Below, piece after piece: positions 2,391 to 43,071 of a stretch of 43,071 nt of DNA (within the stretch, counting starts at the first letter, position 1; each line of letters starts with the position of its first letter). The position numbers and the translations under genes are program-made. Origin of the DNA: an uncultured Bacteroidota bacterium (GTDB lineage: Bacteria > Bacteroidota > Bacteroidia > Bacteroidales > WCHB1-69); the NCBI GenBank assembly GCA_902774205.1, contig CACYHL010000003.1, forward strand, positions 1 through 43,071. The letters run 5' to 3'. The notes under the pieces were generated by a model. The model saw only the letters and a list, made by a program, of their open reading frames with translations, made no database searches and was not told the origin of the DNA.

Positions 2391-2444
2391 CAAAACTGAA
2401 AACGAATAAATAAATTAATATCAACAAATTAAAAACAAAAAACT

Positions 2445-2846: not shown

Positions 2847-3001
2847 CTCCGCGTGTTCCTTATCCGCTCCTCGGAAGCCCCCGGTGCAATGCGCGAGCTG
2901 TACCGTCTCCGCGAGGAGACCTTCCGCATACATATATGTACCATATTATTATATGATGGCACGTTTAACGTTTATATCATTGCAAAATTAACCGGATGTT
3001 A

Positions 3002-4039: not shown

Positions 4040-4045
4040 AATTTG

Positions 4046-13524: not shown

Positions 13525-13535
13525 ATTCCGCTAAT

Positions 13536-15116: not shown

Positions 15117-15130
15117 TAAAATCTGCTAAA

Positions 15131-16666
15131 ATGAGAAAGTTCCTATGTGTGGTTATAGTAATTTTCATATTCTCAGACATTTACTCTCAAAACATCACAA
15201 CAACATACAGTTACACATGGAAGTATGACACGGCATATAATAGTCAGGTAGGAACGCAAAATTTTGCTTATACTGGTTCCGTTCAGACTTATACGGTTAA
15301 TCCAGGGACATATACATTGGAAGTATGGGGGGCGCAGGGAGGATATTATAGTTCCAATATAGGGGGGTATGGAGGATATTCAATTGGTACACTTACTGTT
15401 ACAGGACAAACTGTATTATATATTTATTGTGGCGGTTATCCGGGATATTCTTCTGTGAGTGGGTTTAATGGGGGCGGAACAGGCTCATCGTCTTATGGTG
15501 GCGGCGGCGGTGGCGGTTCAGATATTCGTGTTGGCTCGAATTCTCTTTATGCGCGTGTCATAGTGGCTGGTGGTGGCGGCGGCTCGGGCTATAATCATGG
15601 TTCTGGTGAAACTGGTGGTTATGGCGGCGGGACACAAGGCGGTACAGGAACGTGTGCGTCTTATACTGCTTTATCTTATTTTGGACAAGGTGGAACTCAA
15701 AATTCTGGAGGAAGCAATACTTCCGCATATACAGGCAATTACACATCGGCTTCTTTTGGGCAAGGGGCGTCCAACACCAACTCCTACTATGGGTTTGGTG
15801 GTGGTGGTGGCTGGTATGGTGGCGGTGCGGGACAATATGAACCTGCTGGCGGTGGGAGCGGTTACGTATATACTTCTGCAACAGCAAGTTATTATCCTCA
15901 AGGTTGCCTGCTTAATTCATCTCATTACCTGACTTCCGCAGTAACATACGCAGGTAATACTTCCTTTGCGTCCACTACAGGGGGAATAGAAACAGGACAT
16001 AGCGGAAATGGTTATGCAAGAATCAAGTATTCTTTCAAAACTATTGACCATATCGATTCTTCGATAAATCATATTTATGTTACTACAACAATTACTGATT
16101 TTGTCTGCAAAAATGGGGTTTACAATAACTATGGCTTTACTGTTAATGGAGCATCTTTGTCAAGTGGAGTTCATACTTTTACTAATCATTTTACGTATGG
16201 AAATACAGACAGCATTGTCTGTTTGAATTTAACAATCAGACCTGATGCAACTGTATTTGATGAAGTTGAAGCCCCATATTCTTATACTTGGCCGATAAAT
16301 GGAGTAACTTACACGGAATCAGGTATATACAACTATACTACCGTGACGGCTGAAGGTTGTGACAGCACTGTGATTCTTGCCCTCACAATTTACGACCCGA
16401 CAATTGGAATTGAAGAGAATGCTGATTTACAAGATATTATTATAACACCGAATCCGGTAAACGATCATATTGACATAAAAACAACAGATGTTGCCAATTC
16501 ACTTAATTTGACCGTGTATAACATATATGGTCAAATTTGTCTCACGCAAATGTTGACAAATAGTGAGACACGGATTTCCGTTAGCGAGTTTCCTGCGGGA
16601 ACCTATTTTTTCTGTTTTATCAAGGCAGGGAAAAAATTAATAACTAAAACAATTATAAAAAACTAA
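15131..16666 (+). CDS. secreted glycine-rich-domain protein with T9SS C-terminal sorting domain (paralogue 3)
   Basis: Same architecture (YTLEVWGAQGG, GGGGGGSDIRV, RVIVAGGGGGSG, ETGHSGNGYARIKY, T9SS tail). Starts 14 nt after paralogue 2. Confidence 0.8.
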   Translation: MRKFLCVVIVIFIFSDIYSQNITTTYSYTWKYDTAYNSQVGTQNFAYTGSVQTYTVNPGTYTLEVWGAQGGYYSSNIGGYGGYSIGTLTVTGQTVLYIYCGGYPGYSSVSGFNGGGTGSSSYGGGGGGGSDIRVGSNSLYARVIVAGGGGGSGYNHGSGETGGYGGGTQGGTGTCASYTALSYFGQGGTQNSGGSNTSAYTGNYTSASFGQGASNTNSYYGFGGGGGWYGGGAGQYEPAGGGSGYVYTSATASYYPQGCLLNSSHYLTSAVTYAGNTSFASTTGGIETGHSGNGYARIKYSFKTIDHIDSSINHIYVTTTITDFVCKNGVYNNYGFTVNGASLSSGVHTFTNHFTYGNTDSIVCLNLTIRPDATVFDEVEAPYSYTWPINGVTYTESGIYNYTTVTAEGCDSTVILALTIYDPTIGIEENADLQDIIITPNPVNDHIDIKTTDVANSLNLTVYNIYGQICLTQMLTNSETRISVSEFPAGTYFFCFIKAGKKLITKTIIKN

Positions 16667-16682
16667 AAAAAACAAAGGCATC

Positions 16683-18233
16683 ATGAAAAAGCTAATCAAC
16701 ACTTTAATTCTGATTTGCGTGTTTTCAAGTGTTTACTCTCAAAGTATTTCTACAACTTACAGTTTCACTTGGAAATATGACACGGTTTACAACACACAGA
16801 ACTCTGTACAGAATTTTTCTTACACGGGATCTGTTCAAACGTACTCGGTGAGTGCAGGAACATACAAATTGGAGGTATGGGGTGCACAAGGCGGTCGTGC
16901 GTATTATTCGTCAAGTAGTTATGGATATGGTTATGGAGGCTATGGAGGCTATGCATCAGGTACTTATACTGTAAATGCACCTACGACCTTGTATGTATGT
17001 GTGGGGGCGGAAGGCACGTATAGTAACAGCAATAGCGGCTCAAGCAGCGGTGGTTATAATGGTGGCGGTGCGGGTTATTATTACGGTGCTGGTGGCGGTG
17101 GCGCTACTCATATATCCTTAATGAGTGGTCTGCTACAGAATATTGGCACTTCGAATAAATCAAAGATACTTTTGGTTGCAGGCGGTGGCGGCGGCGGTTA
17201 TCATTATGCGTCCACAAGTTCTTCATACGCGTATCAGGGCGGTTATGGTGGCGGTTCGTCTGGTGGAAGCGGTAGCGGGTATTCATACTATGGTTATGGT
17301 GGAAGCCAATCGTGTGCGGGACATTCAAGTTACAGCTCATCGTATGGCGCAGGCGGCTTTGGTTATGGTGGAAGTTATTACAGCTCAAGTTCAGGGTATG
17401 CCACTGGCGGCGGCGGCGGCGGACTCTATGGCGGCGGCGGCTCCTATAGACGTGGCTCAGGCGGCGGCGGCTCTGGTTATGTGAATACATCGTTACTTAC
17501 AAATTATCAGAACTCATCTGGTAACACATCTTTCCCATCCACTGTTTCTGGAAATACAGAGACAGGACATAGTGGTAATGGATATGCCAGAATATCATAT
17601 TCTTATACGTCAATAGATCATATAGATTCAACCATTGCACACACATATATCAGAACAGATATCTACGATTCGATTTGCAATGGTGAAATGTACAGCCAAT
17701 TGGGGTTCACAATAGATTCTGATACGATTTCTGATGGAATGCATTTGTACACAAAGCATTTCTCTACAACAAACACAGACAGCATGGCATACCTTCATCT
17801 TACAATCAAACCAGACATAGAGGTTTACGAGGAGATTGATGCGCCATATACCTATACGTGGCCAGTGAATGGGGTAACTTACACGGAATCAGGTATATAT
17901 AGCTATTCTACTGTGACAGATGAAGGCTGTGACAGCACTATAATTCTCGCTCTTACAATTTATGACCCGACAATTGGAATTGAGGAAAATATTGATTCGC
18001 AAGATATTAGAATCTCTCCAAATCCTGCGCATGATTATATTGATGTGAAAAGTGATTTCACAAATGTTGATGTGTATATATATAATATGTATGGGCAAAA
18101 ATGTATGGAGAAAAAGTTGACGGAAAATGATACGCGTATTTCTTTAAGCGGGCTTCAAGCAGGGGCATATTTTCTCCGTTTTGCTGAGTCTGGAAAAATT
18201 TTCAAAACACATAAAATTATAAAAAGCGAGTAA
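16683..18233 (+). CDS. secreted glycine-rich-domain protein with T9SS C-terminal sorting domain (paralogue 4)
   Basis: Same architecture with a Gly/Ser/Tyr-rich core (YKLEVWGAQGG, GAGGGGATHISL, LLVAGGGGGGYHY, ETGHSGNGYARISY, T9SS tail). Starts 16 nt after paralogue 3. Confidence 0.8.
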   Translation: MKKLINTLILICVFSSVYSQSISTTYSFTWKYDTVYNTQNSVQNFSYTGSVQTYSVSAGTYKLEVWGAQGGRAYYSSSSYGYGYGGYGGYASGTYTVNAPTTLYVCVGAEGTYSNSNSGSSSGGYNGGGAGYYYGAGGGGATHISLMSGLLQNIGTSNKSKILLVAGGGGGGYHYASTSSSYAYQGGYGGGSSGGSGSGYSYYGYGGSQSCAGHSSYSSSYGAGGFGYGGSYYSSSSGYATGGGGGGLYGGGGSYRRGSGGGGSGYVNTSLLTNYQNSSGNTSFPSTVSGNTETGHSGNGYARISYSYTSIDHIDSTIAHTYIRTDIYDSICNGEMYSQLGFTIDSDTISDGMHLYTKHFSTTNTDSMAYLHLTIKPDIEVYEEIDAPYTYTWPVNGVTYTESGIYSYSTVTDEGCDSTIILALTIYDPTIGIEENIDSQDIRISPNPAHDYIDVKSDFTNVDVYIYNMYGQKCMEKKLTENDTRISLSGLQAGAYFLRFAESGKIFKTHKIIKSE

Positions 18234-30315: not shown

Positions 30316-30938
30316 CTATTTTTCCCGTTTCCTGTATTTCTGATTTCTGTCATTGCGTTTATCTGGAATGGTCATTTCCAAAACGCCCATATCCACAAGA
30401 GTTTGGATGAGTCTTTTGCGATTGACAGACTGATTGGATAGTCCCAATCTGGCTAAAATCTCTTGTGCAGACCTCGGAACAGAACAGAAATTCACAATAT
30501 CCTTTTGTGTCTTTGTCAATGCAGGTTTACGAACTTTTTCTTGGTTACTTTCTTGGTTACTTTCTTGGTTACTTCCTTTCATTTCCAGTAAGGCCTGTTT
30601 CAAGCATTGTAGCATAAATGTTATGAAAGCAGTGCTGTTGGCTTCCGAGTCGCTCTTGGCGATGGCGGCATAGTACTCCTGTTGGTGTTCTTTGACAATG
30701 GTTTCTACTGGAATCCATGCAAAGACAGGCTTCCATTGCATCAGCAAGAGTGTTTGCCACATACGTCCCATTCGTCCATTCCCGTCGGCAAAGGGATGGA
30801 TGAATTCAAATTCATTCCCTTGCGCAGATGTGGGGATGGCAGTTCTGTTGTTGTGGCTGTCAAAAGCCCAACTTGCTCAGCAGTCTCTGCAACCAAAGAT
30901 GTTATTTCGTCTGTTATCGTGAATGGCGGTATATACAT
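30316..30938 (-). pseudogene. Fic/DOC-family gene remnant (internal deletion plus frame change)
   Basis: The N-terminal frame gives MYIPPFTITDEITSLVAETAEQVGLL...SPHLRKG. Only a different frame gives NEFEFIHPFADGNGRMGRMWQTLLL... plus a C-terminal wHTH-like tail. The segment normally lying between the LRK and FIHPF regions is absent. Confidence 0.7.
30541..30576 (-). repeat. 12-nt tandem repeat x3 inside the Fic remnant
   Basis: ttggttactttc / ttggttactttc / ttggttacttcc, encoding (SNQE)3 on the minus strand. Confidence 0.9.
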
Positions 30939-31157: not shown

Positions 31158-31736
31158 TTACAGATCGTCCATAGCGGCGTTGCGCACCTTATCGGAGTTG
31201 ACCTTGTCGTAGTAGGAAAGGCGGGCGCAAGCCGTATGGTATTTTGAACCAGCCATAATAGACAATTCGATATCACCCAATTCCGTGGTGAAAGTGGTGT
31301 ACCACACGTATTCACCATCTTTCAATGCGTACATGATAAGACCATTGTCATTGCCGTTATAATCGGTAAATTTCTCTTTTGAATCTGACGGGGTGCCATA
31401 CTTTTCGGTGAGCATGGCTTTGAGATGTTCGTAATCACTCAGTACTGCCGACCAAGTGTCCTTATCGGGGAAGAGGACAGCGATATGGCTGACCACGTCG
31501 AGGTTCTTCAGGGTGGACACGCCGACTGTACAGCCTTTGTAGCCGGCGAAGTCACCGGTCAGAAGTGCGGTGCCGTCTTGGGTGAGTTCGTATTGGAATC
31601 CAGCTTTCACCATGGCGTCGGTATAAGACTTCAGTGTTCCGTTGATGGGCACGCCCTTAAACGAAAGGTGTTGCTGGGCGAAGATGCTGCCTGCAAACAT
31701 AAGGCAGGCGATGAAAAGGGTGATCTGTTTTTTCAT
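31158..31736 (-). CDS. secreted protein of unknown function
   Basis: Signal peptide MKKQITLFIACLMFAGSIFAQQ in a 192-aa protein. No family recognised. Confidence 0.6.
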   Translation of the reverse strand: MKKQITLFIACLMFAGSIFAQQHLSFKGVPINGTLKSYTDAMVKAGFQYELTQDGTALLTGDFAGYKGCTVGVSTLKNLDVVSHIAVLFPDKDTWSAVLSDYEHLKAMLTEKYGTPSDSKEKFTDYNGNDNGLIMYALKDGEYVWYTTFTTELGDIELSIMAGSKYHTACARLSYYDKVNSDKVRNAAMDDL

Positions 31737-31864: not shown

Positions 31865-33217
31865 TTATACCTCTGACAAGAGGAACATCATATAGAACGG
31901 CAACGTCAGTAGTTGTCCGTTGCGACCGACATTGTAATTGCCGAATTTCAAGGCTTGACGGACATGGTAATGTTCAGGATGCTTGAGTACGGTTTGCATA
32001 GACTTTGCATTTCCTGACCGGGCCTTACATTCCAACGGATAGCATTCTCCCTTGTATCGAGTGAGGAAGTCGAGTTCCAGTCCGCCCTCCTTCTGAAAGT
32101 AGTACAACTTCCGTCCCATTTTGCACAAGATGTCTGCGGCAAGATTTTCAAAAATTGCACCTTTGTAGCCAAAAAGGTTCCCCTGCAAGATACTCCAAGC
32201 CGTACCCTCTTCCAACATACTGACCAACAGGCCAATATCCGTCATATAGACTTTAAAGATATCGGGGATGGCATTGCCGTCGAGAGGCAATTCTGTGATG
32301 GCGACGTTGTGGCACCGGTGGATGATGCCGGCATCCTCAATCCATTGCAGACTTCCGGCATACTGACTTGAACGCCCTCCCCTGCGTATCACGGAGTATT
32401 GAAACTTCTTGTTCTCTTTGGCCAACTGTGCGGGTATGGAATCAAAGCATTCGCGTATGCGGGGCTTGTCCTCCTGACGGGCATACTTCAGCATGTCTGC
32501 CTTATAGGTTTCGATAATGCCGTGTTGCACATCCGACACATCGTTCATATTGTTGGTTTCAAGAAAAGTGCTGACAGCCTCAGGCATTCCGCCCACTACC
32601 ACATAGCGCAGCAACAACTCACACATTCTCTGGTGAATGCCCTCATTGACCGGTGTTTCGTTCTCCAGACAGTTGCGCAGATAGTCGATGTGCTGCTGCT
32701 CAATGCCGTTAGCCCACAGCCACTCCTCGAAGTCCATTGGGTACATTGTGACGATCTGCTCAAATCCAACGGGGACGGATGCCTGTTCCTCTTCCTCTTG
32801 TTCCTCCTTGCTGCGGTAGCCGTTGACTCCCAGCAGAGAGCCCGTGCAAATGACATCATAGCGCCCGTCGAGCTTGAAGAACTTCAACGATGCGCGAGCA
32901 TTGGGGCATTCCTGTATCTCGTCAAGTACCAGACATGTCTCGCCCGCTACGAACCGTGCACCTCGTATGCCTGCTGAGATGGCCAATGTCAATGTATCCA
33001 CGTCAAGTGCTCCGGCAAAGAATGACTTGTATTCCTTGTGCTCGTGGAAGTCCATACAGACAACATACTTGTAGTTCCTGTGGGCAAAATCCAGAACCGA
33101 GCTGGTTTTCCCGCACTGGCGACATCCTTTTATCACCAGCGGTTTATGCCCTTTCTTGTTTTTCCACTGGCTTAAAACCTTCTCTATTTTTCGTTTATAC
33201 ATAGCCATTGTTCCCAT
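31865..33217 (-). CDS. AAA-type ATPase (AAA_14 / DUF4143-like architecture)
   Basis: Walker A-like GCRQCGKTS, Walker B-like CLVLDEIQ, and a C-terminal region resembling the DUF4143 nuclease-like fold. Start is ambiguous among M1, M4 and M6. Confidence 0.65.
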   Translation of the reverse strand: MGTMAMYKRKIEKVLSQWKNKKGHKPLVIKGCRQCGKTSSVLDFAHRNYKYVVCMDFHEHKEYKSFFAGALDVDTLTLAISAGIRGARFVAGETCLVLDEIQECPNARASLKFFKLDGRYDVICTGSLLGVNGYRSKEEQEEEEQASVPVGFEQIVTMYPMDFEEWLWANGIEQQHIDYLRNCLENETPVNEGIHQRMCELLLRYVVVGGMPEAVSTFLETNNMNDVSDVQHGIIETYKADMLKYARQEDKPRIRECFDSIPAQLAKENKKFQYSVIRRGGRSSQYAGSLQWIEDAGIIHRCHNVAITELPLDGNAIPDIFKVYMTDIGLLVSMLEEGTAWSILQGNLFGYKGAIFENLAADILCKMGRKLYYFQKEGGLELDFLTRYKGECYPLECKARSGNAKSMQTVLKHPEHYHVRQALKFGNYNVGRNGQLLTLPFYMMFLLSEV

Positions 33218-33235: not shown

Positions 33236-33327
33236 TGCAATTTTCCCGCCGACTTTTCAATCTGTTTCCACACTTTTCGGGGCGAGTTTTTTGGTTACAT
33301 ACACACTTTTCCATGCGACTTTTTTGG
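33236..33327 (-). repeat. three imperfect direct repeats with 33-nt period in the leader of the ATPase gene
   Basis: Plus strand: tgcaattttcccgccgacttttcaa (33236-), cacacttttcggggcgagttttttgg (33269-33294) and cacacttttccatgcgacttttttgg (33302-33327). The last two match at 22 of 26 positions. Confidence 0.7.
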
Positions 33328-33407: not shown

Positions 33408-34658
33408 TCACCCCAACGGCTGGCAACGCTCTTTGCGCACCACACGGTCGCGCATAAGACGAGGGTCGGAAATGTTGCGGGCGATATTGCAAATGAGATC
33501 AAAATAATTATCCTTGCCGTCTTTATCCCTGTAGTAATAGGGCTTGATGGAAACACAATTCTTATGCTCAAAGAGTGTTTTCAGAAGTGTACGGTCAGAG
33601 ATGCCACAGGAGAGCCCCATTATACAAACTTGATATGGCCCTAGCTCAATGAACCCAAGCATTTTTCGGTAATTGGAGGACTCCAAATAGCGGAAAGATT
33701 TGATGTGGCGCAAATACTCGTTATTATTTTTCTTCATCAATGGTTGATATTCATCGTCATGCTCATCTCCATAACCAAAAATCACACTTTGAGGATTTGA
33801 CAGAGAACCATGAATGTGATTGACTGAAAACAAATCATTGGTTTGCAAATAGATATCTGCCGTATTCGTATAATTGAAGTTTAGCAGCATAATTTTGTCT
33901 GGAAGCCGATATGCGGGACAACTCTTTCCTATATATTCATCTCTGAAATCGCCATAACGAATAGCAACTTCGAATTCATGTTTAAAGCTTTTAATAGAAT
34001 TGGTAGAATAACTTGAGCCCCCTAAAATTGCATTATACGCAGCAAAGAGGTGTTCCCACTGATCATCATTGTAATCCAACCGCTCTTTCATCATATCCTT
34101 CCATTGATCCATTGAACCAATGGCGATGTCGTCTGGAGAGATCGGTGATAAAATTTTCCATTTTATACTGGGAATAACAATGCTATCAGTTATTTCCTTT
34201 TGTATCTCTGACAAATACTCTATCAGATTGGACTTGACAATATCCAATTCCTTATTGACATCTTTAGCAGGGCGGGGTATGCTGTCATGACGTTTCAAAT
34301 GTTTGTAATAAATCTCCTCTATGTCAACCCAACCTTTTGCCTCAATATTCAGACATATTTCGTGAAACATTGGAGTAAACTCCATTGAAAAACTGTTGGT
34401 ATTTTTCCTAATCTCCTCAACAATTGCTTTGCCATCAATTTTTGAATACGATGAAATACAACTATACGCCCAAACACTCCAATAAATCGATTCATTATTG
34501 ATTTTAAAAGAACAAAGTCCATCATCGGATATATTACTTAAAAGACCTCTGAATCCATAGACACGCTTTGTCCAATACCACTTGATGAAGTCTTCATAAC
34601 CCGTTTTCAAGTCATGTGCCAAGTCAAAACCGTTGCCGATGAGGATGATTCTGTTCAT
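33408..34658 (-). CDS. abiH: AbiH-family abortive-infection protein
   Basis: N-terminus MNRIILIGNGFDLAHDLKTGYEDFIKWYW is the characteristic AbiH signature, and 416 aa fits the family. The start codon is 2 nt from the hsdM stop. Confidence 0.75.
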   Translation of the reverse strand: MNRIILIGNGFDLAHDLKTGYEDFIKWYWTKRVYGFRGLLSNISDDGLCSFKINNESIYWSVWAYSCISSYSKIDGKAIVEEIRKNTNSFSMEFTPMFHEICLNIEAKGWVDIEEIYYKHLKRHDSIPRPAKDVNKELDIVKSNLIEYLSEIQKEITDSIVIPSIKWKILSPISPDDIAIGSMDQWKDMMKERLDYNDDQWEHLFAAYNAILGGSSYSTNSIKSFKHEFEVAIRYGDFRDEYIGKSCPAYRLPDKIMLLNFNYTNTADIYLQTNDLFSVNHIHGSLSNPQSVIFGYGDEHDDEYQPLMKKNNNEYLRHIKSFRYLESSNYRKMLGFIELGPYQVCIMGLSCGISDRTLLKTLFEHKNCVSIKPYYYRDKDGKDNYFDLICNIARNISDPRLMRDRVVRKERCQPLG

Positions 34659-34660
34659 TG

Positions 34661-36307
34661 CTATTCCTCAAACTTCAATTTTCCCAACTGCTCCAGAATC
34701 TCTCCCTCCAATTCGTGGCTCTCTGAGAACATTTCCGATAGTTTCTTCTTATGTTCTGCCATCCTGGAATTGAATTCTTCGGCAGTGATGTCCACGTATT
34801 CGATTTTGATGTCGAAGTACTGACCGGCTGAAAGCGAATATTTTTTGTCCTTTATTTCTTTGAAAGTGACCACTTTCGAGAAATCGTCCACCTCTTTCTG
34901 TTGCTTGAACGTATCGATGATTTGTTCTATTTCAAAGTCGCGTAGGACAGTTTTCTGGTTGTTGTCTATCTTGACTTTCTCGCCGAGTTTGGAAGCGTCA
35001 ATCAGGATCACATTACCATCCTTGTTTGCTTTGTCGATGAAGATAACACTAACATTGGTGCCGGTGTTGGCAAAGATATTGGAGGGCATAGAAACGACAC
35101 CTCGCAACCATCCTTCGTCAATGATGCGTTGTTTGATTTTCAGCGGAATACCGCTGCCGGCGGTTAAGAACCCGGTCGGCACCACCACCGCCGCCTTGCC
35201 GGTCGATTTCAGGATGTAGAGGATGTGCTGGAGGAAGCACTGATAGATGGCCATACTGTCCTTCTTTTTGTTAGGAATGTTTGGAACTCCTGCAAAGAAG
35301 CGGTCAGTGTTTTGGAAGGCTTTGTGCGTCACACTCTCGCTGAAATCCACATTGAATGGCGGATTACTCACCACATAGTCGAACTGTCCCATCATCTCAC
35401 CGTTTTTGCCGGCGTGGCCCCAGCTGATGAGCGAATCGCCTTGCACCACGTTGGGCAATGAATGCACCAGATTGTTTAAAATCAGATTCAACCGCAACAT
35501 CGTGGTGCTCTTCTGGCTTTGGTCCTGGCTGTAGATGGTGCAGCGGTCTTCGCCAATTTGGTGGGCCAAGGCCATCAACAGCGTGCCGGTACCGGCGGAC
35601 GGGTCGCAGCAGGTGATGCTTTTCAGCTCTTCCTTTTGATCCACCAACAGACGGGCCATCACAGTGGCCACGGCGTGCGGGGTGAAATACTCCGCATATT
35701 TGCCGCCTCCGTTTTTGTTGTAGTCGGCAATCAGATACTCGAACACGGTGGCGAAGAAATCGTATTTCTGGTCGAATACCTCCTCAAAGTTGAAGGTGAT
35801 AAGCTTGTTCACCAGCGCTTTCGCGAAGTCGTCGCGTTTATCCACATCGGTGACATTGGTGGTGATGGCTTCGAACAGAGCCACATTGCTCTTGCCAGAG
35901 GTTTTGATACTGTAACGGTCGGCATTGGCCTGTCCCAGCGACACCATCGTGTCGTCAAAGGTGCCAGCGAAGCCGTCTTCCGCCATACGGTTATAGAGGG
36001 AAGCTATCAGAAACTCGGGCTTCATCCGCGGAGCTTCAGGCACAAAATCCTGCAGGTCTTCGCGTTCCGCATCCGTCAGTGCCTTGTAGGCGTCTTCCCA
36101 GTGCTCGGCATTGCGCAATCTGTCGCGGTAATCCGTGTCGGCACGTTTCACTTCGTAGCCGAATTTGTCGTTCAAGTATTTGTACAGGAACACTTGTACG
36201 ATGATTTTGTACTCGCTACTGTCGCCCGACAACCCGTAGGCGGAGCAGGTGGCGCGAAGGGCGTCAATCAACGCCTCGGTCTTTTCTATATGCTGTTTTG
36301 TATCCAT
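34661..36307 (-). CDS. hsdM: type I restriction-modification system methyltransferase subunit
   Basis: HsdM N-domain style start, AdoMet motif CDPSAGTGTLL and catalytic VVSNPPFNVDF, in a 548-aa protein. Confidence 0.9.
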   Translation of the reverse strand: MDTKQHIEKTEALIDALRATCSAYGLSGDSSEYKIIVQVFLYKYLNDKFGYEVKRADTDYRDRLRNAEHWEDAYKALTDAEREDLQDFVPEAPRMKPEFLIASLYNRMAEDGFAGTFDDTMVSLGQANADRYSIKTSGKSNVALFEAITTNVTDVDKRDDFAKALVNKLITFNFEEVFDQKYDFFATVFEYLIADYNKNGGGKYAEYFTPHAVATVMARLLVDQKEELKSITCCDPSAGTGTLLMALAHQIGEDRCTIYSQDQSQKSTTMLRLNLILNNLVHSLPNVVQGDSLISWGHAGKNGEMMGQFDYVVSNPPFNVDFSESVTHKAFQNTDRFFAGVPNIPNKKKDSMAIYQCFLQHILYILKSTGKAAVVVPTGFLTAGSGIPLKIKQRIIDEGWLRGVVSMPSNIFANTGTNVSVIFIDKANKDGNVILIDASKLGEKVKIDNNQKTVLRDFEIEQIIDTFKQQKEVDDFSKVVTFKEIKDKKYSLSAGQYFDIKIEYVDITAEEFNSRMAEHKKKLSEMFSESHELEGEILEQLGKLKFEE

Positions 36308-36334
36308 AGAATCTTATTCTTTTGAATTATGAAT

Positions 36335-37420
36335 TCAATGTATTTTTCGAGATTCGTCGTTTTTGAATTTGTACATTCCGGTTTCGTGGGAAATGCGACC
36401 CAGAACTATCCATTTGTGCAAATTGTTCTCTTCTGCCCACTGGCTATATTTTTTTTCTATCAGCCAAGGTTTGTTGAGCTGCACTTGAGGAATGGTAGTG
36501 GATTTCCAAAGCTTTTCGGGAATAAGGTGGTTGCAAGCAAACGTATTGGCCTCTTGTTCTTCTTTTGTGTCCTCCATCAGATTGATAAACCTCTTTTCGG
36601 TTTCTGAAACATGAAGCTTTAAATGACCGATTTCATGCATCACAGCGAAAGCAAAATTGTCTATTCTGTCATATCGCTTGGTTACAACGATGGAAGGGAT
36701 TCCATCTGTGTCTAAGAATGAATAGCCATCGATGCTCGCCTTATCGACTTTTTCCACAATGCAAAACCTTATACCATTATCTGACAATATTTTTTTGGTG
36801 CTTTCAATGACATCTTCATTTTTATTAAAAACATCTGCCAATTGTTGTATATAATCATTCTTTTCAGGGTTGTACACCTGAGTGGTTTGCTGTTGACGTG
36901 CAGCATACTGGGCAAGGACTTCCCAAGTGAATATAGCCCGCTGATCCGTACCTGACTTCTCAGATTTGCGGAATTTGCCCAAATTATATTTCAGCTCAGC
37001 AGGTTTGGGCAAAAGCAATTGGTGGACAACAAAATTCAATTTTTCGACACACGAAGCAAAGGCAACACCAACTCGCTTGAATATCAAATTGATGTTAATC
37101 ATTTCGTCATACTCGTTTAATAACAATTGTGCTTTTTGTTCCTTGATACTGCGTTTTTTTATGACTTCACAGTCATACTCGTATTCGGCTTGCAACTTCA
37201 TCCAGAATTTCGCATTGATGCCGAGCTCCCGTTCGAGGTCGTCGGCAACTTTCGGGGAAATGGCACGCTTGCCCTTTATGAGCTCGCTCAAATGGGTGGC
37301 TTGCATACCAATGGCTTTGGCAAAATCCTTTTGCTTGATGTTGCGCGCTTCAAGTTCGGCTTTAATGGTCGCTCCGGGCGCGACTGCCATAAAGGGTACT
37401 ATTTTATTTTTTTCTTCCAT
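36335..37420 (-). CDS. HigA-like XRE HTH fused to an ImmA/IrrE (M78, COG2856) zinc metallopeptidase domain
   Basis: N-terminal HTH (IKQKDFAKAIGMQATHLSELIKGKRAISPKVADDLERELGINAKFWMKLQ) and C-terminal HExxH (AVMHEIGHLKLH). It overlaps the upstream toxin-like gene by 17 nt. Confidence 0.75.
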   Translation of the reverse strand: MEEKNKIVPFMAVAPGATIKAELEARNIKQKDFAKAIGMQATHLSELIKGKRAISPKVADDLERELGINAKFWMKLQAEYEYDCEVIKKRSIKEQKAQLLLNEYDEMININLIFKRVGVAFASCVEKLNFVVHQLLLPKPAELKYNLGKFRKSEKSGTDQRAIFTWEVLAQYAARQQQTTQVYNPEKNDYIQQLADVFNKNEDVIESTKKILSDNGIRFCIVEKVDKASIDGYSFLDTDGIPSIVVTKRYDRIDNFAFAVMHEIGHLKLHVSETEKRFINLMEDTKEEQEANTFACNHLIPEKLWKSTTIPQVQLNKPWLIEKKYSQWAEENNLHKWIVLGRISHETGMYKFKNDESRKIH

Positions 37421-37727
37421 AATGGGATTCGTTTATTTCTAACAATAATATTCTAATGCCTTCGTCAAATTCTTCGAATATTAACCGTTCTACTCGACCA
37501 TTTTGTATCCTTACGGAGCTTTGTCCAGACCGATCGAATTTGAGTTTCTCATAGTGTAAAGAGCTGAATTGTTTCAATTCTTCTGTGTTTTCCACCGATA
37601 ACAAACGATTGTAAACCGACACTAATGCTGCGCAGAAGACTTTATCTTTAGATAGTTTCTTATATTTATTGTTTTTTCCATACTCTATTAATTCTTGTAA
37701 GTCAATATCCGCAAAATCAACAATCAT
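37404..37727 (-). CDS. HigB-like (plasmid maintenance system killer / RelE-fold) toxin
   Basis: ~107 aa with LHYEKLKFDRSGQSSVRIQNGRVERLIFEE, resembling the HigB L.G...G.ySiRin..wRlvF block, and it precedes a HigA-type HTH. Start is set at 37727 because a -7 box covers the ATG at 37751. Confidence 0.6.
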   Translation of the reverse strand: MIVDFADIDLQELIEYGKNNKYKKLSKDKVFCAALVSVYNRLLSVENTEELKQFSSLHYEKLKFDRSGQSSVRIQNGRVERLIFEEFDEGIRILLLEINESHYGRKK

Positions 37728-37748
37728 AATGTGATATTTTTGAGAGTG

Positions 37749-37756
37749 CAAAAATA
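37749..37756 (-). promoter_or_regulatory. -7 promoter box (TATTTTTG) for higB-like / XRE-peptidase / hsdM / abiH
   Basis: Reverse complement of caaaaata matches TAnnTTTG, about 22 nt upstream of the ATG at 37727. Confidence 0.35.
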
Positions 37757-37764
37757 CAAAAAAA

Positions 37765-37781
37765 TTACCATATCATGGTAA
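37765..37781 (-). promoter_or_regulatory. perfect 7-3-7 palindrome TTACCAT-ATC-ATGGTAA (operator and/or terminator hairpin)
   Basis: Seen directly. On the minus strand the hairpin is followed by a T7 run, which makes it terminator-like for the DUF2971 gene. It also sits just upstream of the -7 box of the HTH-encoding operon. Confidence 0.55.
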
Positions 37782-37811
37782 CTTTTTTATTTTTTCTCTA
37801 CATCACTCCGT

Positions 37812-38588
37812 TCATATCACCTCCGCCTGCAGCCGGAAGGCATTGCCGTCCACACGCATTTGGTAAAGTTTGATTTCCGGATTCAGCTTCTTGCGGGCAT
37901 ATTTGATTATTTTTTCTTTTTCAGTCGGATCTGTGTTCACACCAAAGTATATCGACTCAAAACATTCGCCCTTCAGCGGCATATAATGGTGAACCTCTTT
38001 CCAATCCATAACTTCATTGCTTTTGGAGCGTTCGGCTTGTTCGGGTGTTAAGGCCGCGTACATAGGACCCGGCTTGGGCATGACCAACCTGACCTCCTGT
38101 TCATACGCCCATTCTTTTGCTTTAGTACGCCATTGATAACTGAAAATATCCTCTGCACTATGATAAGCATTGGGGCGTTCAATTATATCCTGATATTGAA
38201 CCTCTAAAATAAACGGTTCAAGATACAGGGAACCGAACATAGGAGGAACAGATTTCATCACTTTGTCCATGTCCAGCCCGATGCAAACGCCTTTGTGGTT
38301 ATAGCAATAGTGACTCCACATCAGTATTGAATCATTGATTTTCGATAAACTGCAGAGCCAGGTATCGTTGCGCAAATTGAGGGCATCGAGTTCTTCTTTC
38401 TCAATCCACCAATCCTCTGGTATCCAACCTTGCAATCTTGAGGCGGGCACATTCGAGTAGTCTATCAATTTGGGATGACAATCGAAAGGGTCATTTAGCT
38501 GGGAGGCATTGGTGAATTGGAGATCTTGGTTCCCAATCATGCATTTAGCTCCGACAATGTCCAAATATTTGTAGAGAATGCGGGACAT
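37812..38588 (-). CDS. DUF2971-family protein
   Basis: MSRILYKYLD..., LQFTNASQLNDPFDC, WLCSLSKINDSILMWSHYCYNHKGVCIGLD and KEWAYEQEVRL follow the DUF2971 motif series (LYKY / NDPFE / MWSHYA..HKG / W.yE.E.R). Confidence 0.7.
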   Translation of the reverse strand: MSRILYKYLDIVGAKCMIGNQDLQFTNASQLNDPFDCHPKLIDYSNVPASRLQGWIPEDWWIEKEELDALNLRNDTWLCSLSKINDSILMWSHYCYNHKGVCIGLDMDKVMKSVPPMFGSLYLEPFILEVQYQDIIERPNAYHSAEDIFSYQWRTKAKEWAYEQEVRLVMPKPGPMYAALTPEQAERSKSNEVMDWKEVHHYMPLKGECFESIYFGVNTDPTEKEKIIKYARKKLNPEIKLYQMRVDGNAFRLQAEVI

Positions 38589-38644
38589 ACTTATTCTATC
38601 GTTACTTGACCGTTCCTCAACAACACATTGCTGAAATTAGACGT

Positions 38645-39517
38645 TTAGTCCTCGCCATAATAAACTTTTTTTGCCTTTTCTACAAGAGGAACAAAAACAT
38701 CTTTATGTTTCTTGAATTCATCATGATTAGGGAAAGAGATTTTATAAACATTATCACTTGAAATATAAGAGACATCCAACCCTGTATTTTCTATTTTTTG
38801 AGTTGTCTCCTCATCTTCGGGAAGTTTTATAAATAAGAATACAAAATTCTTTCGAGGTCTAAAGTAAATAAAGTTTTTTGCAACTCCATCTTTTGCTATC
38901 CCGATATAAAACTTATTGAACTTCAATTCAAAATCACCTATTATTTCTTTAAGTTCAGTAAAAATACTATCTACTGTTTTTATGATTTTTGGGGTACTAG
39001 ACTTTTCCCAGTAATTTCTATCAGTAACCTCTGCAGTTTCAAAGTCAGCATCATTAGCTAAAGAAATTCTGTCTAAGACTTTTGTGAAAATAAGTTCAAC
39101 ATCATCTCCGTGTTTGATGGCAGACATTTGCAAGGCAATTAACGGTATTGCTCCATTAAAAAGGGAAATGACATTCATAAATCTGCCCGTTATTTCTTCA
39201 GCAACAATAACAGCGCAATGGTTATATTGGGGATAGCGTTTTTTCTCGGTATCCCAATACTCTAAAGTGCGAATGATGTGGCTTGGATCGGTACTGCCGA
39301 GCTGAATTTCGACTTCATATCTTTCCACACCGTCCTGATCTGAAAGTAGAATATCCAGAATTCCTCCCATGGGCTGCCTCTTTTCTCGTTGGATTGGAAT
39401 TAAGTTTCCCAAGCCAAGCACAGAAGGGTCTGTAAAAATAAACTCCTGTATTGATTTTTCATTGATTTCAGGATGGTTTTTAAGCAATATCTTCTCGCTC
39501 TTTACTAATTTAGCCAT
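38645..39517 (-). CDS. PD-(D/E)XK-like (NucS/DUF91-style) N-domain protein with an uncharacterised C-domain
   Basis: The pattern QREKRQPMGGILDILLSDQDGVERYEVEIQLGSTDPSHIIRTLEYW resembles E...GxxDxL..D..G....vE.K....a....v.Q...Y, with Q in the usual K position. The C-half has a YIGIAKDG..NFIYFRPRKNFVFLFIKL pattern. The gene is very AT-rich. Confidence 0.5.
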   Translation of the reverse strand: MAKLVKSEKILLKNHPEINEKSIQEFIFTDPSVLGLGNLIPIQREKRQPMGGILDILLSDQDGVERYEVEIQLGSTDPSHIIRTLEYWDTEKKRYPQYNHCAVIVAEEITGRFMNVISLFNGAIPLIALQMSAIKHGDDVELIFTKVLDRISLANDADFETAEVTDRNYWEKSSTPKIIKTVDSIFTELKEIIGDFELKFNKFYIGIAKDGVAKNFIYFRPRKNFVFLFIKLPEDEETTQKIENTGLDVSYISSDNVYKISFPNHDEFKKHKDVFVPLVEKAKKVYYGED

Positions 39518-39552
39518 ATTTATTGGTATTTTATATTTTCGTACTAATTTGA

Positions 39553-40763
39553 TTATTCTTCTATCTCAACTTGCCCGTTCATCAGCATCGGCAACAGCGA
39601 ATCTCGAAGGCGGGTGAGGTGATTCTTCTCATCTGTTACTTGTTTTTGTTTTTCTCTAAAAGCATTGGTAATATTGCAATAGGTTTCTATCAATTTATCA
39701 GGAGGAAACGCAACTATATAGGACATCAAGTTTTCCTGATTAATTTTCTTTTGAATAGAACCCGTTTCAATTAACACCACAGGTATTGTCTTCAATAAGA
39801 AATAGCAGTACTCTAACCATTTTTTATTATTCAATGTGATAATATGAGCGTGATTATTCACCCAATTTTTACCCCAAATATATTGAACAACGGGATTGCC
39901 ATTTTCATCGGACGTTGATCCGTCTTCTGCCAACAGCAAATAATCCCCATCAAATATGTATTCATCTACATAATCCATAATACCCGTAGCTCCATAATAT
40001 GGGAATGGTCCTTTTTTATTTTCTCTTTCCTTATTTGATAATGGTATCCGTCGATAGTCTTCTAAAATTAGAATATTACTTAATTCTTTCACTTCCCACC
40101 CCTCCGGAATCTCTCTCTTCAGTTTTTCGTTCCACACCATCTTTCCCCCGGAGGATTTGTAGGGCTTGCCGTTTTCATCGGGCTTGCCCTGAGCAAAGTC
40201 GAAGGGGAAATCGAACTGCACGAACCAATAGTCGTAGAGCTGCTTGGCCATCGCCTCCAACTCGGCGTTCATGCGGGTGTTGAGGGAGATCTTTTGGTCA
40301 ATATCAAATAATAGATTCCCAATTTTCTCTTGTTCAGAAATACTTGGGAGTATGAATTCAAAATCTCCAAGTTGTTCTAAACTTATATGAGGTATTGATG
40401 TGCCAGTATGTATTGTTTTGATATACTGCTCAAATCTATCGCTAAAGATAGCATAATACAAGTATTTTTGGATAGATTTTTCGTTATGTCGCACACATGC
40501 AACACGTTGAGCAAGGTAAAGCGGCAAATCACTTTCAGATACGATTGCTCTATTTCTCCCTACACGCGAACCATCCATTCCTATAACAATATCTTCATTT
40601 CTTTAAATGGATAATTCCACCTTTTATCAATATCCCATCTAAGATTACCGATGGTAACATTATCTCCTCTTACAACTCTAATTCCTTCTGATGAGTATTT
40701 GTGTCCATCAAAAGGGAAACCAGCTATAAGAGATGCGACTTCATTCAATTTACATTTCTTCAT
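39553..40763 (-). pseudogene. hsdS: type I R-M specificity subunit, split by a single frameshift
   Basis: The 60-aa N-fragment (MKKCKLNEVASLIAGFPFDG...) ends at a TAG at 40581. The -1 frame continues ...RNEDIVIGMDGSRVGRNRAIVSESDLPLYLAQRVACVR. A central conserved helix (AELEAMAKQLYDYWFVQFDFP) and C-terminal LRDSLLPMLMNGQVEI are present. The combined length of about 400 aa is typical of HsdS. Confidence 0.8.
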
Positions 40764-40766
40764 CTC

Positions 40767-43071
40767 TTATCTCAAAACATTATATTCCCTTAAATACTCT
40801 CCGGCGATGAGGTTGGATATGTAGCGGCGGTCGTCGGGCTGGGCCTTCACGTCAATGTCCCTCAATGCCGTTGCCACGGCGTAGATGACCTGCGCGTTGA
40901 AATCGGCCTCGTTGCAGATCAATTGCTCGCGGTTCATGATCAGCAGGTCGATGGCATCCTTCACATTGTTCAGCGCCCTGCACTGCTCCACCTCCTGTGG
41001 CGACAGCAGCGTTTTGCCGCTTTCCTGCTCGTGGCTGCGTATGCGCTTGTGCGCCCGCACAAATTTCACATCGCCACGGTATTTCTTCTGCAAATTGGCA
41101 TTGCGGCGGTTAATCTCCCGAATGCGCTCCATTGCCATATCCATAAAACCGATATCCTCTTTGGCGTCGGCCATGCTGCCCACCTCGAAATTGCGCTTGG
41201 CAAAATGCTCCTGTATCAACTGCATCAGCGAGATGTATTCCTCATCATCCTGGTCAATGCAAGCCTGCATTTCATTGCTCAAAGCTTTCCGTTTCTGGCG
41301 CATCTCGTCTTTGATGTCGGTGCCTATCTCCAACTCGTTTTCGCCCCGCTTGCGGAACCGGAAGTCAATGGTGGCCAATGCCTCGTTAATCATACTGCTC
41401 ACCTCGGCCTCGTGGCTAAACATGCTTTTCAGATTCAGGTTGTCGATGCGTGCATTCACCACCTTCAGCAGGTTCTGCAAGTCGCCGGGGTTCATCTCCT
41501 GTGCCAAATCTTTCAGTTCCGGGCTTCCGAATGTGCGCACCTCGTTCCACACCGCTTTCGCCTCCTCCAAACGATGGCGGATCTGTATCAACTTATCACG
41601 GTCTTCAATCTCCTCCATCTCCTGCGAGAACAGTTCGGCATTTGAAGGCGTGTAATCGAACAGCACCTCCTGAACATTCGCCATAATCTCCCTCACTTCG
41701 TGAGGCGTTACCAGCACCGTTTCGGTCATTGTCTTCCCCTCTTCGCCAGTGCCAAACTGGTTCAGCTCTCTGGCGTAGGCATCGTTAATCTGGTCGAAAT
41801 TGTCCTGTATGTCGGCAAAATCCACCACATAGCCGAACTGCATCTGCTTGTAGGGGCGGTTCACACGGGTCAATGCCTGTAACAGATTGTGGTCTTTCAG
41901 CTTACGGCCCAAATAAAGCCGTTTCAGACGGTGGGCGTCAAAACCCGTCAGCAGCATATTGTTGACGATGAGCAGGTCGGGGTGGTTTTTCTTTCGGAAC
42001 CGGTAGCAAATGCCCTTTCTCGTCTCTTTGTCGTAAAAATCGTGAAGGATAAGTTCCGCGGAAATATCGTGATGCTGCCACGGAGTTTGCTCAAGGTCAT
42101 CTTCGGGGATTTGCGCATCTGGTTCAGGCATATAGCTTCCGTCGGGTCCCGGCCCCATCTTCAGCAGGCGGAACATCATCCGCGCCTGCGGGTTGGTTTC
42201 GCATACAATGATGCCACCTAACGAGTTGTCGGCCTGCTGGATACGCCAGCGTTTGAAATCGGCGATGATATAGTCGAGCAAGGCGCCCACATAACGCGGA
42301 TTTTCCAATATCCGCTCGCGTCGCACATCTTCCCGTTTTACCTGTATGGTCTCCTTGAGCTGCTCCCATACCTCCTGCAGTCGCAGCCGGTAGGAGGTCT
42401 CGATGTCTTCGCGGAGTATTTTCTTTGTAAAACCGTCCTCAATACTGCGGTTATAGTAGTAGGTGCTGATATAGTCGCCAAACACATCGCGGCTTTTCAC
42501 CTCGTCGCCAATAAGCGGAGTTCCGGTAAGTGCAATATGAATGGCTTTCGGGTCGCTTTCGAACAGCCGCGCGAGGAAAGAGCCTTGCGGATTATAGTCG
42601 CGATGGGCTTCGTCAAGGAAGTAGATGCGCTGGATGTTGACGGCATAGTCCGGGATATTCACATTGCCATCACTGTCTTTCAGTTTCTGGATATTCACCA
42701 CGATGATTTCGGGTTTGCCCTCGTTGCCCTGTTGTGCCGTGGTGGTTTGGAAGGTCTTCATCAGCTCGTCGCGCGAATCCACATTAATGACCTTCAACCC
42801 ACGATTGGAGAATTCAATGGTGGCCTGTTCCATCAGATCGAGACGATCGACAAAGAAGTAATATTTGGGCACGATGCCCTTGTTCTTGTAATAGTCGGTC
42901 AGCACGCGGGAGGCGAAATAGGACAGGGCCGTTTTGCCCGAGCCCTGCGTGTGCCAGATGATGCCGCTGCGCACTCCTTCGCTAAGTTTTTGGCGGATGG
43001 CCTGCGTGCCGAACACCTGCGGATAGCGCATCACGTGTTTCTCCAAAACCGCTTTGTTGGTATCTTCGTCG
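40767..43071 (-). CDS. hsdR: type I restriction enzyme R subunit, N-terminal part beyond the window
   Basis: Helicase motifs WHTQGSGKTALS, YFLDEAHRDY and ALTGTPL, with a long C-terminal helical domain. The frame stays open to the right edge (…DEDTNKAVLEKHVMRYPQ). The stop is 3 nt from the hsdS start. Confidence 0.9.
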   Translation of the reverse strand, partial: DEDTNKAVLEKHVMRYPQVFGTQAIRQKLSEGVRSGIIWHTQGSGKTALSYFASRVLTDYYKNKGIVPKYYFFVDRLDLMEQATIEFSNRGLKVINVDSRDELMKTFQTTTAQQGNEGKPEIIVVNIQKLKDSDGNVNIPDYAVNIQRIYFLDEAHRDYNPQGSFLARLFESDPKAIHIALTGTPLIGDEVKSRDVFGDYISTYYYNRSIEDGFTKKILREDIETSYRLRLQEVWEQLKETIQVKREDVRRERILENPRYVGALLDYIIADFKRWRIQQADNSLGGIIVCETNPQARMMFRLLKMGPGPDGSYMPEPDAQIPEDDLEQTPWQHHDISAELILHDFYDKETRKGICYRFRKKNHPDLLIVNNMLLTGFDAHRLKRLYLGRKLKDHNLLQALTRVNRPYKQMQFGYVVDFADIQDNFDQINDAYARELNQFGTGEEGKTMTETVLVTPHEVREIMANVQEVLFDYTPSNAELFSQEMEEIEDRDKLIQIRHRLEEAKAVWNEVRTFGSPELKDLAQEMNPGDLQNLLKVVNARIDNLNLKSMFSHEAEVSSMINEALATIDFRFRKRGENELEIGTDIKDEMRQKRKALSNEMQACIDQDDEEYISLMQLIQEHFAKRNFEVGSMADAKEDIGFMDMAMERIREINRRNANLQKKYRGDVKFVRAHKRIRSHEQESGKTLLSPQEVEQCRALNNVKDAIDLLIMNREQLICNEADFNAQVIYAVATALRDIDVKAQPDDRRYISNLIAGEYLREYNVLR

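Follow-up and report, generated by a model that had tools for sequence, protein, structure and literature searches.

Genes embedded in type I restriction-modification (R-M), BREX and DISARM loci are mostly defence genes, as found in the screen from which the PDC profile models derive (Payne et al. 2024, 10.1101/2024.01.29.577857). Embedded genes have been tested in two type I settings, TgvAB in the VPI-2 island of Vibrio cholerae (PMC11411939) and DarTG2/RptR in enteropathogenic Escherichia coli (EPEC; PMC12255303). Three further reports concern the protein families discussed below: when cloned alone, Aristaios, a DUF2971 protein, confers phage defence of the abortive-infection type on lactococci (PMC11381338); the DUF2971 family has been assigned to the DarT-like ADP-ribosyltransferases (ARTs; PMC12522546); and in the PD-lambda-2 system, the toxicity of component B is neutralised by A, and defence additionally requires a third protein, C (PMC9519451). 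The stretch analysed here, hereinafter the window, comprises 43,071 nucleotides (nt) from an uncultured rumen bacterium of the phylum Bacteroidota, order Bacteroidales (WCHB1-69; assembly GCA_902774205.1, contig CACYHL010000003.1) and contains, from position 33408 to its end, a type I R-M operon in which four additional genes of anti-phage type separate hsdS from hsdM and an AbiH gene forms the end. Comparison of this operon with its relatives makes it likely that it is a modular, layered anti-phage island built by recombination on a type I operon of the hsdR-hsdS-hsdM family order.

The genes follow one another along the minus strand, on which all substantial open reading frames (ORFs) of this region lie, in the order hsdR, hsdS, a gene for a 290-amino acid (aa) protein, DUF2971, a HigB-like gene, a gene for a fusion of an XRE-type helix-turn-helix (HTH) domain with an M78 peptidase (XRE-M78), hsdM and AbiH. 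This order, claimed in a preliminary description of the window, is borne out by the ORF list and profile searches, and all its spacers are exactly reproduced: 3 nt between hsdR and hsdS (40764-40766), 35 nt between hsdS and the 290-aa gene, 56 nt between the latter and DUF2971, 60 nt between DUF2971 and the HigB-like gene, a 17-nt overlap of the HigB-like and XRE-M78 genes (37404-37420), 27 nt between XRE-M78 and hsdM, and 2 nt between hsdM and AbiH. The 60-nt gap is correct as an ORF spacer, counted from the mechanical ORF start TTG 37751; given that the homologues in the family alignment start at MIVDF, ATG 37727 is the most likely start of the HigB-like gene, which extends the gap to 84 nt. 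The methylase gene had been placed about 3.2 kb from the R and S genes, and the measured distance from the hsdS stop to the hsdM start is 3245 nt. The gene identities given below likewise support the earlier notion of a composite defence island on a type I R-M operon. Homologous loci are denoted by L numbers.

The hsdR gene (40767-43071, minus strand) continues beyond the window at its 5' end. A profile search identifies Pfam SWI2_SNF2 (E 4e-39) together with ResIII and a T1R_D3-like domain, as well as TIGR00348 (E 7e-57). The 767 aa encoded within the window include the motor and domain 3, and the N-terminal nuclease region falls past the window end; the 1055-aa proteins of the relatives carry HSDR_N, and the window protein is 97% identical to that of L003. 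The hsdM gene (34661-36307) matches N6_Mtase (E 1e-65) and, over the full length, the PADLOC model MTase_I (PDLC03033, E 4e-228), matches that identify its product as the N6-adenine methyltransferase subunit of a type I system. The identification of hsdS (39553-40763) also stands: the search detects two Methylase_S stretches (E 7e-25) and PADLOC Specificity_I (E 2e-87, profile positions 85-398 of 403). The preliminary description overlooked, however, that this gene has no single open frame; it is broken at 40579-40583 into a 60-aa ORF (40763-40581) and a 341-aa ORF (40578-39553) in different frames. The break is probably an assembly artefact because it coincides exactly with a gap of Ns in L001, a sibling public scaffold from the same sample that begins at the base of the window end and is 99.96-99.99% identical. 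At the corresponding place (2480-2490), L001 has 7 bases, ten Ns and 14 bases, that is, 21 extra bases plus N10, and its hsdS is called as one 413-aa gene; the window sequence at the break looks like a 31-nt collapse between two TTAARGAA motifs. An exact-product look-up of the 341-aa hsdS product finds no record in any other assembly. Both hsdR and hsdM show 97% protein identity to L003 and only about 92% DNA identity; the differences are thus mostly synonymous, which suggests purifying selection.

A scan with HsdM yielded 23 loci, in which the close relatives, all from rumen Bacteroidales, share 87-97% HsdM identity with the window. The arrangement R-S-M is contiguous in the Neisseria loci L010, L011, L013 and L021, the closest unsplit versions, in agreement with the earlier statement that canonical loci keep hsdM beside hsdS; several Bacteroidota and Firmicutes loci are contiguous in the order R-M-S, and a single gene separates R from S in Cardiobacterium and Aggregatibacter. 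The R-first order is a trait of this hsd family. The unsplit versions are found at about 53% HsdM identity, and the close rumen relatives are all split, each differently. In L003 and L005, the order is R-S-DUF2971, a 158-aa PDC-M64B gene plus an 86-aa HTH gene (PDC-M64C), and M. In L004, which has both toxin-antitoxin-like pairs, R-S-DUF2971 and the same M64B-HTH pair are followed by a 96-nt duplicate of the DUF2971 3' end and then by HigB-like, XRE-M78, M and AbiH. L015 consists of an HTH remnant, a DUF2971 remnant, HigB-like, XRE-M78, M and AbiH, joined to a different M'-S'-PDC-S27 locus. L026-L030 have R-S-290aa-DUF2971-M-AbiH without the toxin-antitoxin (TA)-like pair and with an 8-nt gap between DUF2971 and hsdM. 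A 1.5-kb segment of the window (about 37836-36309), which holds a palindrome, a -7 box and the TA-like pair, is an insertion when compared with L026. The HigB-like/XRE-M78 pair, the 290-aa gene and AbiH are each present in some close relatives and missing from others. A gene order shared with related genomes, together with uniform composition, had been named beforehand as a sign of an ancestral operon, and this is found in part: R-S-290aa-DUF2971-M-AbiH recurs in L026-L030, another lineage.

In the relatives, the slot before hsdM is occupied by the overlapping PDC-M64B/XRE HTH (PDC-M64C) pair at 6498-7228 in L003, 5654-6387 in L005 and 7667-8397 in L004; accordingly, whichever of the two kinds of cargo fills this slot, its last gene encodes an HTH protein and abuts hsdM. 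In L009, a reindeer-rumen metagenome-assembled genome (MAG), the right-hand block (620-4340) is degraded, with XRE-M78 split, hsdM lacking residues 97-252 and AbiH truncated, which could be real decay or a MAG assembly error.

The junctions between these cassettes are marked by decayed duplicates of the 3' end of the upstream gene. In the window, the segment 38591-38640 (minus strand) is a decayed copy of the last approximately 45 nt of hsdS that reads to SNVLLRNGQVTIE and a stop, and meets the DUF2971 start codon in precisely the way seen in the hsdS-DUF2971 junctions of L003, L004 and L005, to which it was aligned. L026 contains the same hsdS-tail scar, more decayed, with derived changes in common with the window, indicating that the 290-aa gene entered once, before the lineages of the window and L026 split. 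Recombination between allelic hsd loci that differ in their cargo would account for these scars, a route that we infer from the remnants.

The DUF2971 gene (37812-38588; PF11185, E 1.7e-9, 39 bits against a cutoff of 22) corresponds to the PADLOC candidate PDC-S31 (E 1.2e-34). Among 34 homologues, W91, H93, Y94 and Y162-E163-x-E165 are invariant, forming WxHY and ExE motifs, and the window protein carries the Tyr of motif II and the ExE of motif III as defined in PMC12522546. The protein is predicted to be an ART-type effector. The ART fold is taken from the literature because our own AlphaFold2 (AF2) model, built on a shallow alignment (73-90% identity), is unusable, with a mean predicted local distance difference test score (pLDDT) of 44; a search of the DUF2971 profile against PDB sequences gives no match.

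A DUF2971 scan collected 32 Bacteroidales species loci at 70-91% identity, including Hoylesella, Bacteroides, Parabacteroides and Segatella. In about 16 of these, DUF2971 begins 0-4 nt past an hsdS ending in LLPLLMNGQITIE, in both R-S-M and R-M-S architectures; three more have it after what appears to be another HsdS type, and overall it is hsdS-linked in about 20 of the 32. In L058, L066 and L078, only a decayed hsdS tail precedes DUF2971, with no adjacent hsd gene. In the close relatives L003, L004 and L005, DUF2971 directly follows hsdS, and DUF2971 co-diverges with hsdM (identities of 88/97, 91/95, 75/87 and 78/88%). Given that DUF2971 follows an hsdS tail, intact or decayed, in most of the 32 species loci, it is an old passenger linked to hsdS, moving together with the hsdS tail, and not a recent insert; in the R-S-M family, this linkage by itself parts S from M. 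The earlier view of four unrelated later inserts is therefore compatible with the variable presence of the TA-like pair, the 290-aa gene and AbiH but not with DUF2971, which is linked to hsdS and co-diverges with hsdM. In L078 (6615-9247), an HTH gene, the decayed hsdS tail, DUF2971, HigB-like and XRE-M78 are grouped with no hsd gene nearby, suggesting that the cargo can outlive, or move without, the R-M genes. This group adjoins a homologue of the 192-aa gene of the window (31158-31736).

The 290-aa protein (gene at 38645-39517, minus strand) has no Pfam match at the gathering score. Its AF2 model (mean pLDDT 82.8) shows similarity in a Foldseek search to the PD-(D/E)XK domain of NucS/EndoMS for residues 1-150 (PDB entries 2vld and 5gke, E 4e-5); residues 165-290 resemble the double-wing domain at the C-terminus of MotA (target TM score 0.55-0.59). 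These matches agree with weak family matches to NucS_C (20 of 35 members) and DUF5655 (3 of 35), and the protein is accordingly described as a putative PD-(D/E)XK N-terminal domain followed by a MotA-C/DUF5655-like domain. In the family, D55, E68, E70 and Q72 are invariant, with Gln72 at the position where the Lys of the D...ExK motif is expected. An assignment as a NucS orthologue was rejected: the nuclease-like domain is N-terminal here and C-terminal in NucS, the NucS N-terminal DNA-binding/dimerisation domain is not present, and the MotA-C/DUF5655-like domain follows instead. Matches to PDC models are marginal (PDC-S18, E 7e-5). The family is unannotated and very large (more than 7000 clusters at 90% identity and at least 527 species loci), with homologues at 48-66% identity over many bacterial phyla, candidate phyla radiation groups and Methanobrevibacter. 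This cross-phylum conservation suggests a highly mobile stand-alone gene. The family was also considered as R-M-specific cargo, which was rejected given that hsd genes lie within 6 kb in only 8 of 80 species loci (L086-L165). In Oscillospiraceae (L031-L035), the homologue overlaps by 8 nt an upstream gene for a 96-aa Polbeta/MNT-type nucleotidyltransferase (about 7718-8867 in L031), so that the Firmicutes homologue occupies the place of the HEPN toxin in MNT-HEPN pairs.

The HigB-like gene (37404-37727, minus strand) encodes a 107-aa protein of the RelE fold. The family pattern is H..L.G...G.S.RI....R..F......HYG, with invariant H58, R73, R81 and H102-Y103-G104; PF05015 (HigB-like_toxin) is matched by 9 of 33 family members, phrog_3066 ('toxin of TA system') is detected with E 2e-5, and homologues are named 'plasmid maintenance system killer' in some sources. 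The adjacent gene (36335-37420) encodes HTH_3 fused to a Peptidase_M78 (ImmA/IrrE) domain with a HEIGH motif and matches TIGR02607, HigA, above the cutoff (51.1 bits), as well as the HigA structure 4mcx in PDB (E 5e-7); the candidate HigA-type antitoxin thus carries an extra M78 domain. With the HigB-like gene upstream of a HigA-type XRE HTH gene and the two genes overlapping, the pair has the layout of type II HigBA systems. Elsewhere in Bacteroidales, it always consists of two genes with an overlap of about 17 nt and no third gene, and it is located next to integrases, at the ends of prophages or within integrative elements, a distribution that points to a mobile two-gene module. The pair resembles PD-lambda-2 (PMC9519451) in that a HigB-like gene is followed by a HigA-HTH/peptidase fusion, which matches PD-Lambda-2_B over its length (E 2.5e-44, residues 6-355 against profile positions 51-385 of 402), and RosmerTA in that the PADLOC RmrA models match the fusion over the peptidase region (about 1e-14). 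It differs from PD-lambda-2 in that the HigB-like protein is not matched by PD-Lambda-2_A, even at E<=1, and that no P4-antitoxin-like component C is present, the next gene, 27 nt on, being hsdM.

The control region of this cassette (37749-37790, minus strand) consists of an A-tract, a palindrome, a T-tract and a -7 box. The terminator-like hairpin of the preliminary description is real in so far as RNA folding gives 16 pairs at 37790-37756 (-14.4 kcal/mol, shuffle z-score -2.7). However, the stem contains only 2 G-C pairs, and the terminator scan does not report it as a Rho-independent terminator. The palindrome TTACCAT-N3-ATGGTAA (37781-37765) is perfect, flanked by A and T runs and unique in the window. 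The predicted -7 box was confirmed: TATTTTTG at 37756-37749 is a perfect Bacteroides-type TAnnTTTG, 21 nt ahead of the ATG, which places the palindrome at about -33 of the cassette's own promoter. Both elements are kept in all four related cassette loci (L004, L009, L015 and L078). The distant modules L036 and L042 have different palindromes at the same position before a -7 box, and in L036 the upstream gene is divergent, so that a terminator would have no function there. Given the -33 position at a promoter-like box and the different palindromes of the distant modules, we consider the hairpin no less likely to act as an operator for the HigA-type HTH than as a terminator. The support for the -7 box comes from its position and conservation and not from statistics: the single motif is not enriched window-wide (39 matches against 34.8 expected), and the composite -33/-7 Bacteroides pattern has no match within the island. 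A sigma-70 promoter scan (22 sites against 19.2 expected) is uninformative, being of the wrong promoter type for Bacteroidota, and Rfam identifies no family at the gathering score in the whole window. Transcription of hsdM-AbiH from the cassette promoter, as proposed earlier, is plausible, considering that the -7 box travels with the pair and that the 27-nt gap before hsdM contains no promoter or terminator motif; an intragenic -7 match inside the XRE-M78 gene (36545-36538) speaks against it, as it could be the promoter of hsdM itself.

AbiH (33408-34658, minus strand) is identified by PF14253 (E 8e-26, 92 bits against a cutoff of 30.9, residues 4-370) and by the PADLOC AbiH model (E 1e-12). 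The AbiH alleles of the relatives are only 42-74% identical where the adjoining HsdM is 88-95% identical, and nucleotide homology with four relatives stops near 34570, about 85 nt into AbiH. Allele swaps appear to use the conserved AbiH N-terminus (MNRIILIGNGFDLAHDL) as a crossover point.

The base composition of the island was compared with that of 19 flanking host genes (G+C 45.3 +/- 2.7%, G+C at third codon positions, GC3, 47.5 +/- 7.6%). The genes hsdR and hsdM are high outliers (G+C 52.6 and 50.1%, GC3 70 and 67%); hsdS (32-38%), the 290-aa gene (34.6%) and the HigB-like gene (32.2%) are low, and DUF2971 (44.4%) and XRE-M78 (41.2%) are ordinary, making the island a compositional mosaic. 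The six 60-nt samples counted by hand in the preliminary description are exact (50.0, 58.3, 21.7, 35.0, 33.3 and 41.7% G+C), but the conclusion drawn from them, that the lower G+C of the inserts reflects later acquisition, is not sustained. The core gene hsdS is as low as the 'inserts', DUF2971 is at the host mean, and hsdR and hsdM are themselves GC3 outliers, so that G+C is silent on which genes came first; as evidence for the order of insertion, it was rejected on this per-gene comparison.

These observations can be combined into the following scenario. The R-M enzyme probably restricts unmethylated DNA, and the NucS-like nuclease, the DUF2971 ART-type effector, the HigB-like/HigA-M78 pair and AbiH are probably self-contained modules, mostly of the abortive-infection or toxin type, that are carried by and co-transcribed with the operon. 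Recombination between related hsd loci that differ in their cargo would have assembled the island and would continue to reshuffle it. Homology would be provided by conserved hsd genes, each event combining a single homologous crossover within an hsd gene with a single illegitimate joint that leaves a duplicated 3' end of the upstream gene. The entry of the 290-aa gene would precede the split of the lineages of the window and L026, and the TA-like module would have brought its own promoter and palindrome, such that hsdM-AbiH could also be read from the cassette promoter.

Several points weigh against this scenario of a layered defence island. The third component that PD-lambda-2 requires is absent from this locus, the 290-aa protein lacks the canonical Lys of the D-ExK motif, and members of its family usually occur apart from R-M genes (in 72 of 80 species loci). 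The DUF2971 model is too poor to lend support to the ART fold in this particular protein, and the tight linkage of DUF2971 with hsdS could reflect functional coupling instead of hitch-hiking. Finally, hsdS is out of frame in the window and, if the break is real, the R-M enzyme is dead. The last point leads to the alternative of a decaying locus, in which R-M would be inactive and the remaining addiction modules and remnants would be kept by post-segregational killing and not for defence. The hsdS remnant in the window, the DUF2971 and HTH gene remnants in relatives and the apparent degradation of L009 are in line with this alternative; yet the break falls exactly on the N-gap of L001 and resembles an assembly join, the remaining genes are all full length, and the substitution pattern of hsdR and hsdM points to purifying selection, which together render decay quite improbable. 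Functional coupling would make DUF2971, and perhaps the 290-aa nuclease or AbiH, an effector held in check by HsdMS/R, in the manner of PrrC: a phage anti-restriction protein would disable the enzyme and release the effector, and the embedding would be a physical or regulatory partnership. This possibility is compatible with the 0-4 nt spacing behind hsdS in both architectures, the co-divergence of DUF2971 with hsdM, the 2-4 nt spacing of hsdM and AbiH in four lineages, and the near confinement of PrrC itself to type I loci (10.1101/2024.01.29.577857). It nevertheless appears unlikely: DUF2971 persists next to a decayed hsdS tail, with hsd genes missing from its surroundings, in L058, L066 and L078, Aristaios protects on its own (PMC11381338), AbiH alleles are exchanged while hsdM stays constant, and AbiH is absent from L003 and L005.

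A different role is conceivable for the HigB-like/HigA-M78 pair, namely that it is mainly a regulatory switch for hsdM-AbiH, analogous to the C proteins or RptR of other R-M islands. The HTH would bind the -33 palindrome and repress, and a phage cue acting via the M78 peptidase would lift repression, yielding more methylase and AbiH. The conserved juxtaposition of palindrome and TAnnTTTG box, the substitution of another palindrome at the same place in the distant modules, the motif-free gap before hsdM, the alternative slot cargo that also ends in an XRE-type HTH (the 86-aa protein next to PDC-M64B) and the precedent of RptR, a small repressor of a type I island (PMC12255303), are all compatible with such a switch. 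Its standing is tentative, given that L026-L030 and the Neisseria loci have hsdM without such a pair, that the same pair occurs in prophages and integrative elements without a downstream methylase, and that hsdM might be served by the intragenic -7 match. The layered defence island is preferred over these alternatives, although it and they are not mutually exclusive. A broader proposition, somewhat more doubtful than the switch itself, is that hsd operons of gut and rumen Bacteroidales serve as integrase-free cassette platforms and that, at the same time, the inserted HigB-like/HigA-M78 module places hsdM-AbiH under a protease-gated, palindrome-controlled promoter. If so, the last approximately 45 nt of hsdS and the 3' ends of the resident cargo would be portable recombination handles, by which abortive-infection and TA-type modules are stacked, swapped and precisely lost between loci, and the expression of methylase and AbiH would respond to infection.

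Immediately downstream, beyond the coordinates covered by the preliminary description, lies another candidate defence gene, which encodes an AAA_14-DUF4143 ATPase (31865-33217, minus strand; PADLOC candidate PDC-S01, E 9e-153) with its own -7 box, TATCTTTG, at 33340-33333. The stretch between this box and the start of the gene contains a pair of 26-nt direct repeats (33269-33327, plus-strand coordinates; 85% identity, spaced by 33 nt), which may be a regulatory site. Further on, a 151-aa ORF (30316-30771, minus strand) matches only the C-terminal domain of Fic-like proteins and may be a remnant at the island edge. Elsewhere in the window (11947-18233, plus strand), there are four tandem paralogous genes for proteins of 511-526 aa with low GC3 (30-39%), each of which combines an ALK/LTK glycine-rich domain with a C-terminal sorting domain of type IX secretion.

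In compact form, the locus illustrates how R-M operons gather second-line defences in nature, with relatives that give an unusually clear record of assembly in the form of empty, single-cargo and stacked states and junction scars. It also flags two little-studied candidates, the hsdS-linked, ART-like DUF2971 gene that is widespread in Bacteroidales and the very widespread, highly conserved and unannotated NucS-like/DUF5655-like protein. ORFs embedded in hsd loci, for which the preliminary description cited the rlo ORFs of Campylobacter jejuni, have been recognised since PrrC and rlo and are by now catalogued (TgvAB, DarTG2 and the survey of Payne et al.), and the locus leaves the current picture of defence islands unchanged.

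Compared with the loci of the 'guilt by embedding' screen of Payne et al., the window likewise has extra genes between hsd genes, of which DUF2971 corresponds to PDC-S31, the nearby AAA_14-DUF4143 gene to PDC-S01, and the relatives hold PDC-M64B/C and PDC-S27 in the same slots; it differs in that three embedded modules and AbiH are stacked in one operon, and the junction remnants of this stacking are an extra detail not seen in the text of that paper. The RRDM island of EPEC (RptR, type I R-M, DarTG2 and an M48 peptidase; PMC12255303) similarly contains a TA-type system between type I subunit genes, an ART-type toxin (DarT; the DUF2971 family is reported to resemble it, PMC12522546), a small regulator of the HTH type and a gene for a metallopeptidase. 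There, however, the order is M-S-[DarTG]-R with the regulator first, in contrast to R-S-[cargo]-M in the window, where DUF2971 is without an adjacent DarG-like antitoxin and the peptidase is an M78 domain fused to the HTH. Unrelated defence genes in an hsd operon, in a strain-variable arrangement, are also found in V. cholerae VPI-2 (TgvAB, PMC11411939) and, as far as the citing article relates it, in the C. jejuni hsd/rlo loci (doi 10.1099/mic.0.27327-0, cited in PMC11411939); the genes described in these sources are a GmrSD-like type IV restriction system and RloA-H, whereas those of the window are ART-like, TA-like, NucS-like and AbiH. The likeness to Aristaios (PMC11381338) is one of domain family, a single DUF2971-domain protein with a predicted ART fold and an abortive-infection phenotype, but Aristaios has 316 aa against 258 aa in the window and is plasmid-borne in Firmicutes. 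PrrC/EcoprrI, the archetype of coupling between R-M and abortive infection, shares the placement of an effector gene inside a type I locus; no homologue of PrrC, an ABC-ATPase anticodon nuclease, is present in the window. Thus, with embedding in type I R-M loci already well documented, this locus is a good example of a known arrangement and no new kind of system, to which it possibly adds a few modest new pieces: the scars that document how cassettes were stacked, the linkage of DUF2971 to the hsdS tail, a conceivable rewiring by which hsdM-AbiH would come under a promoter controlled by HigA-M78, and the unannotated 290-aa family.

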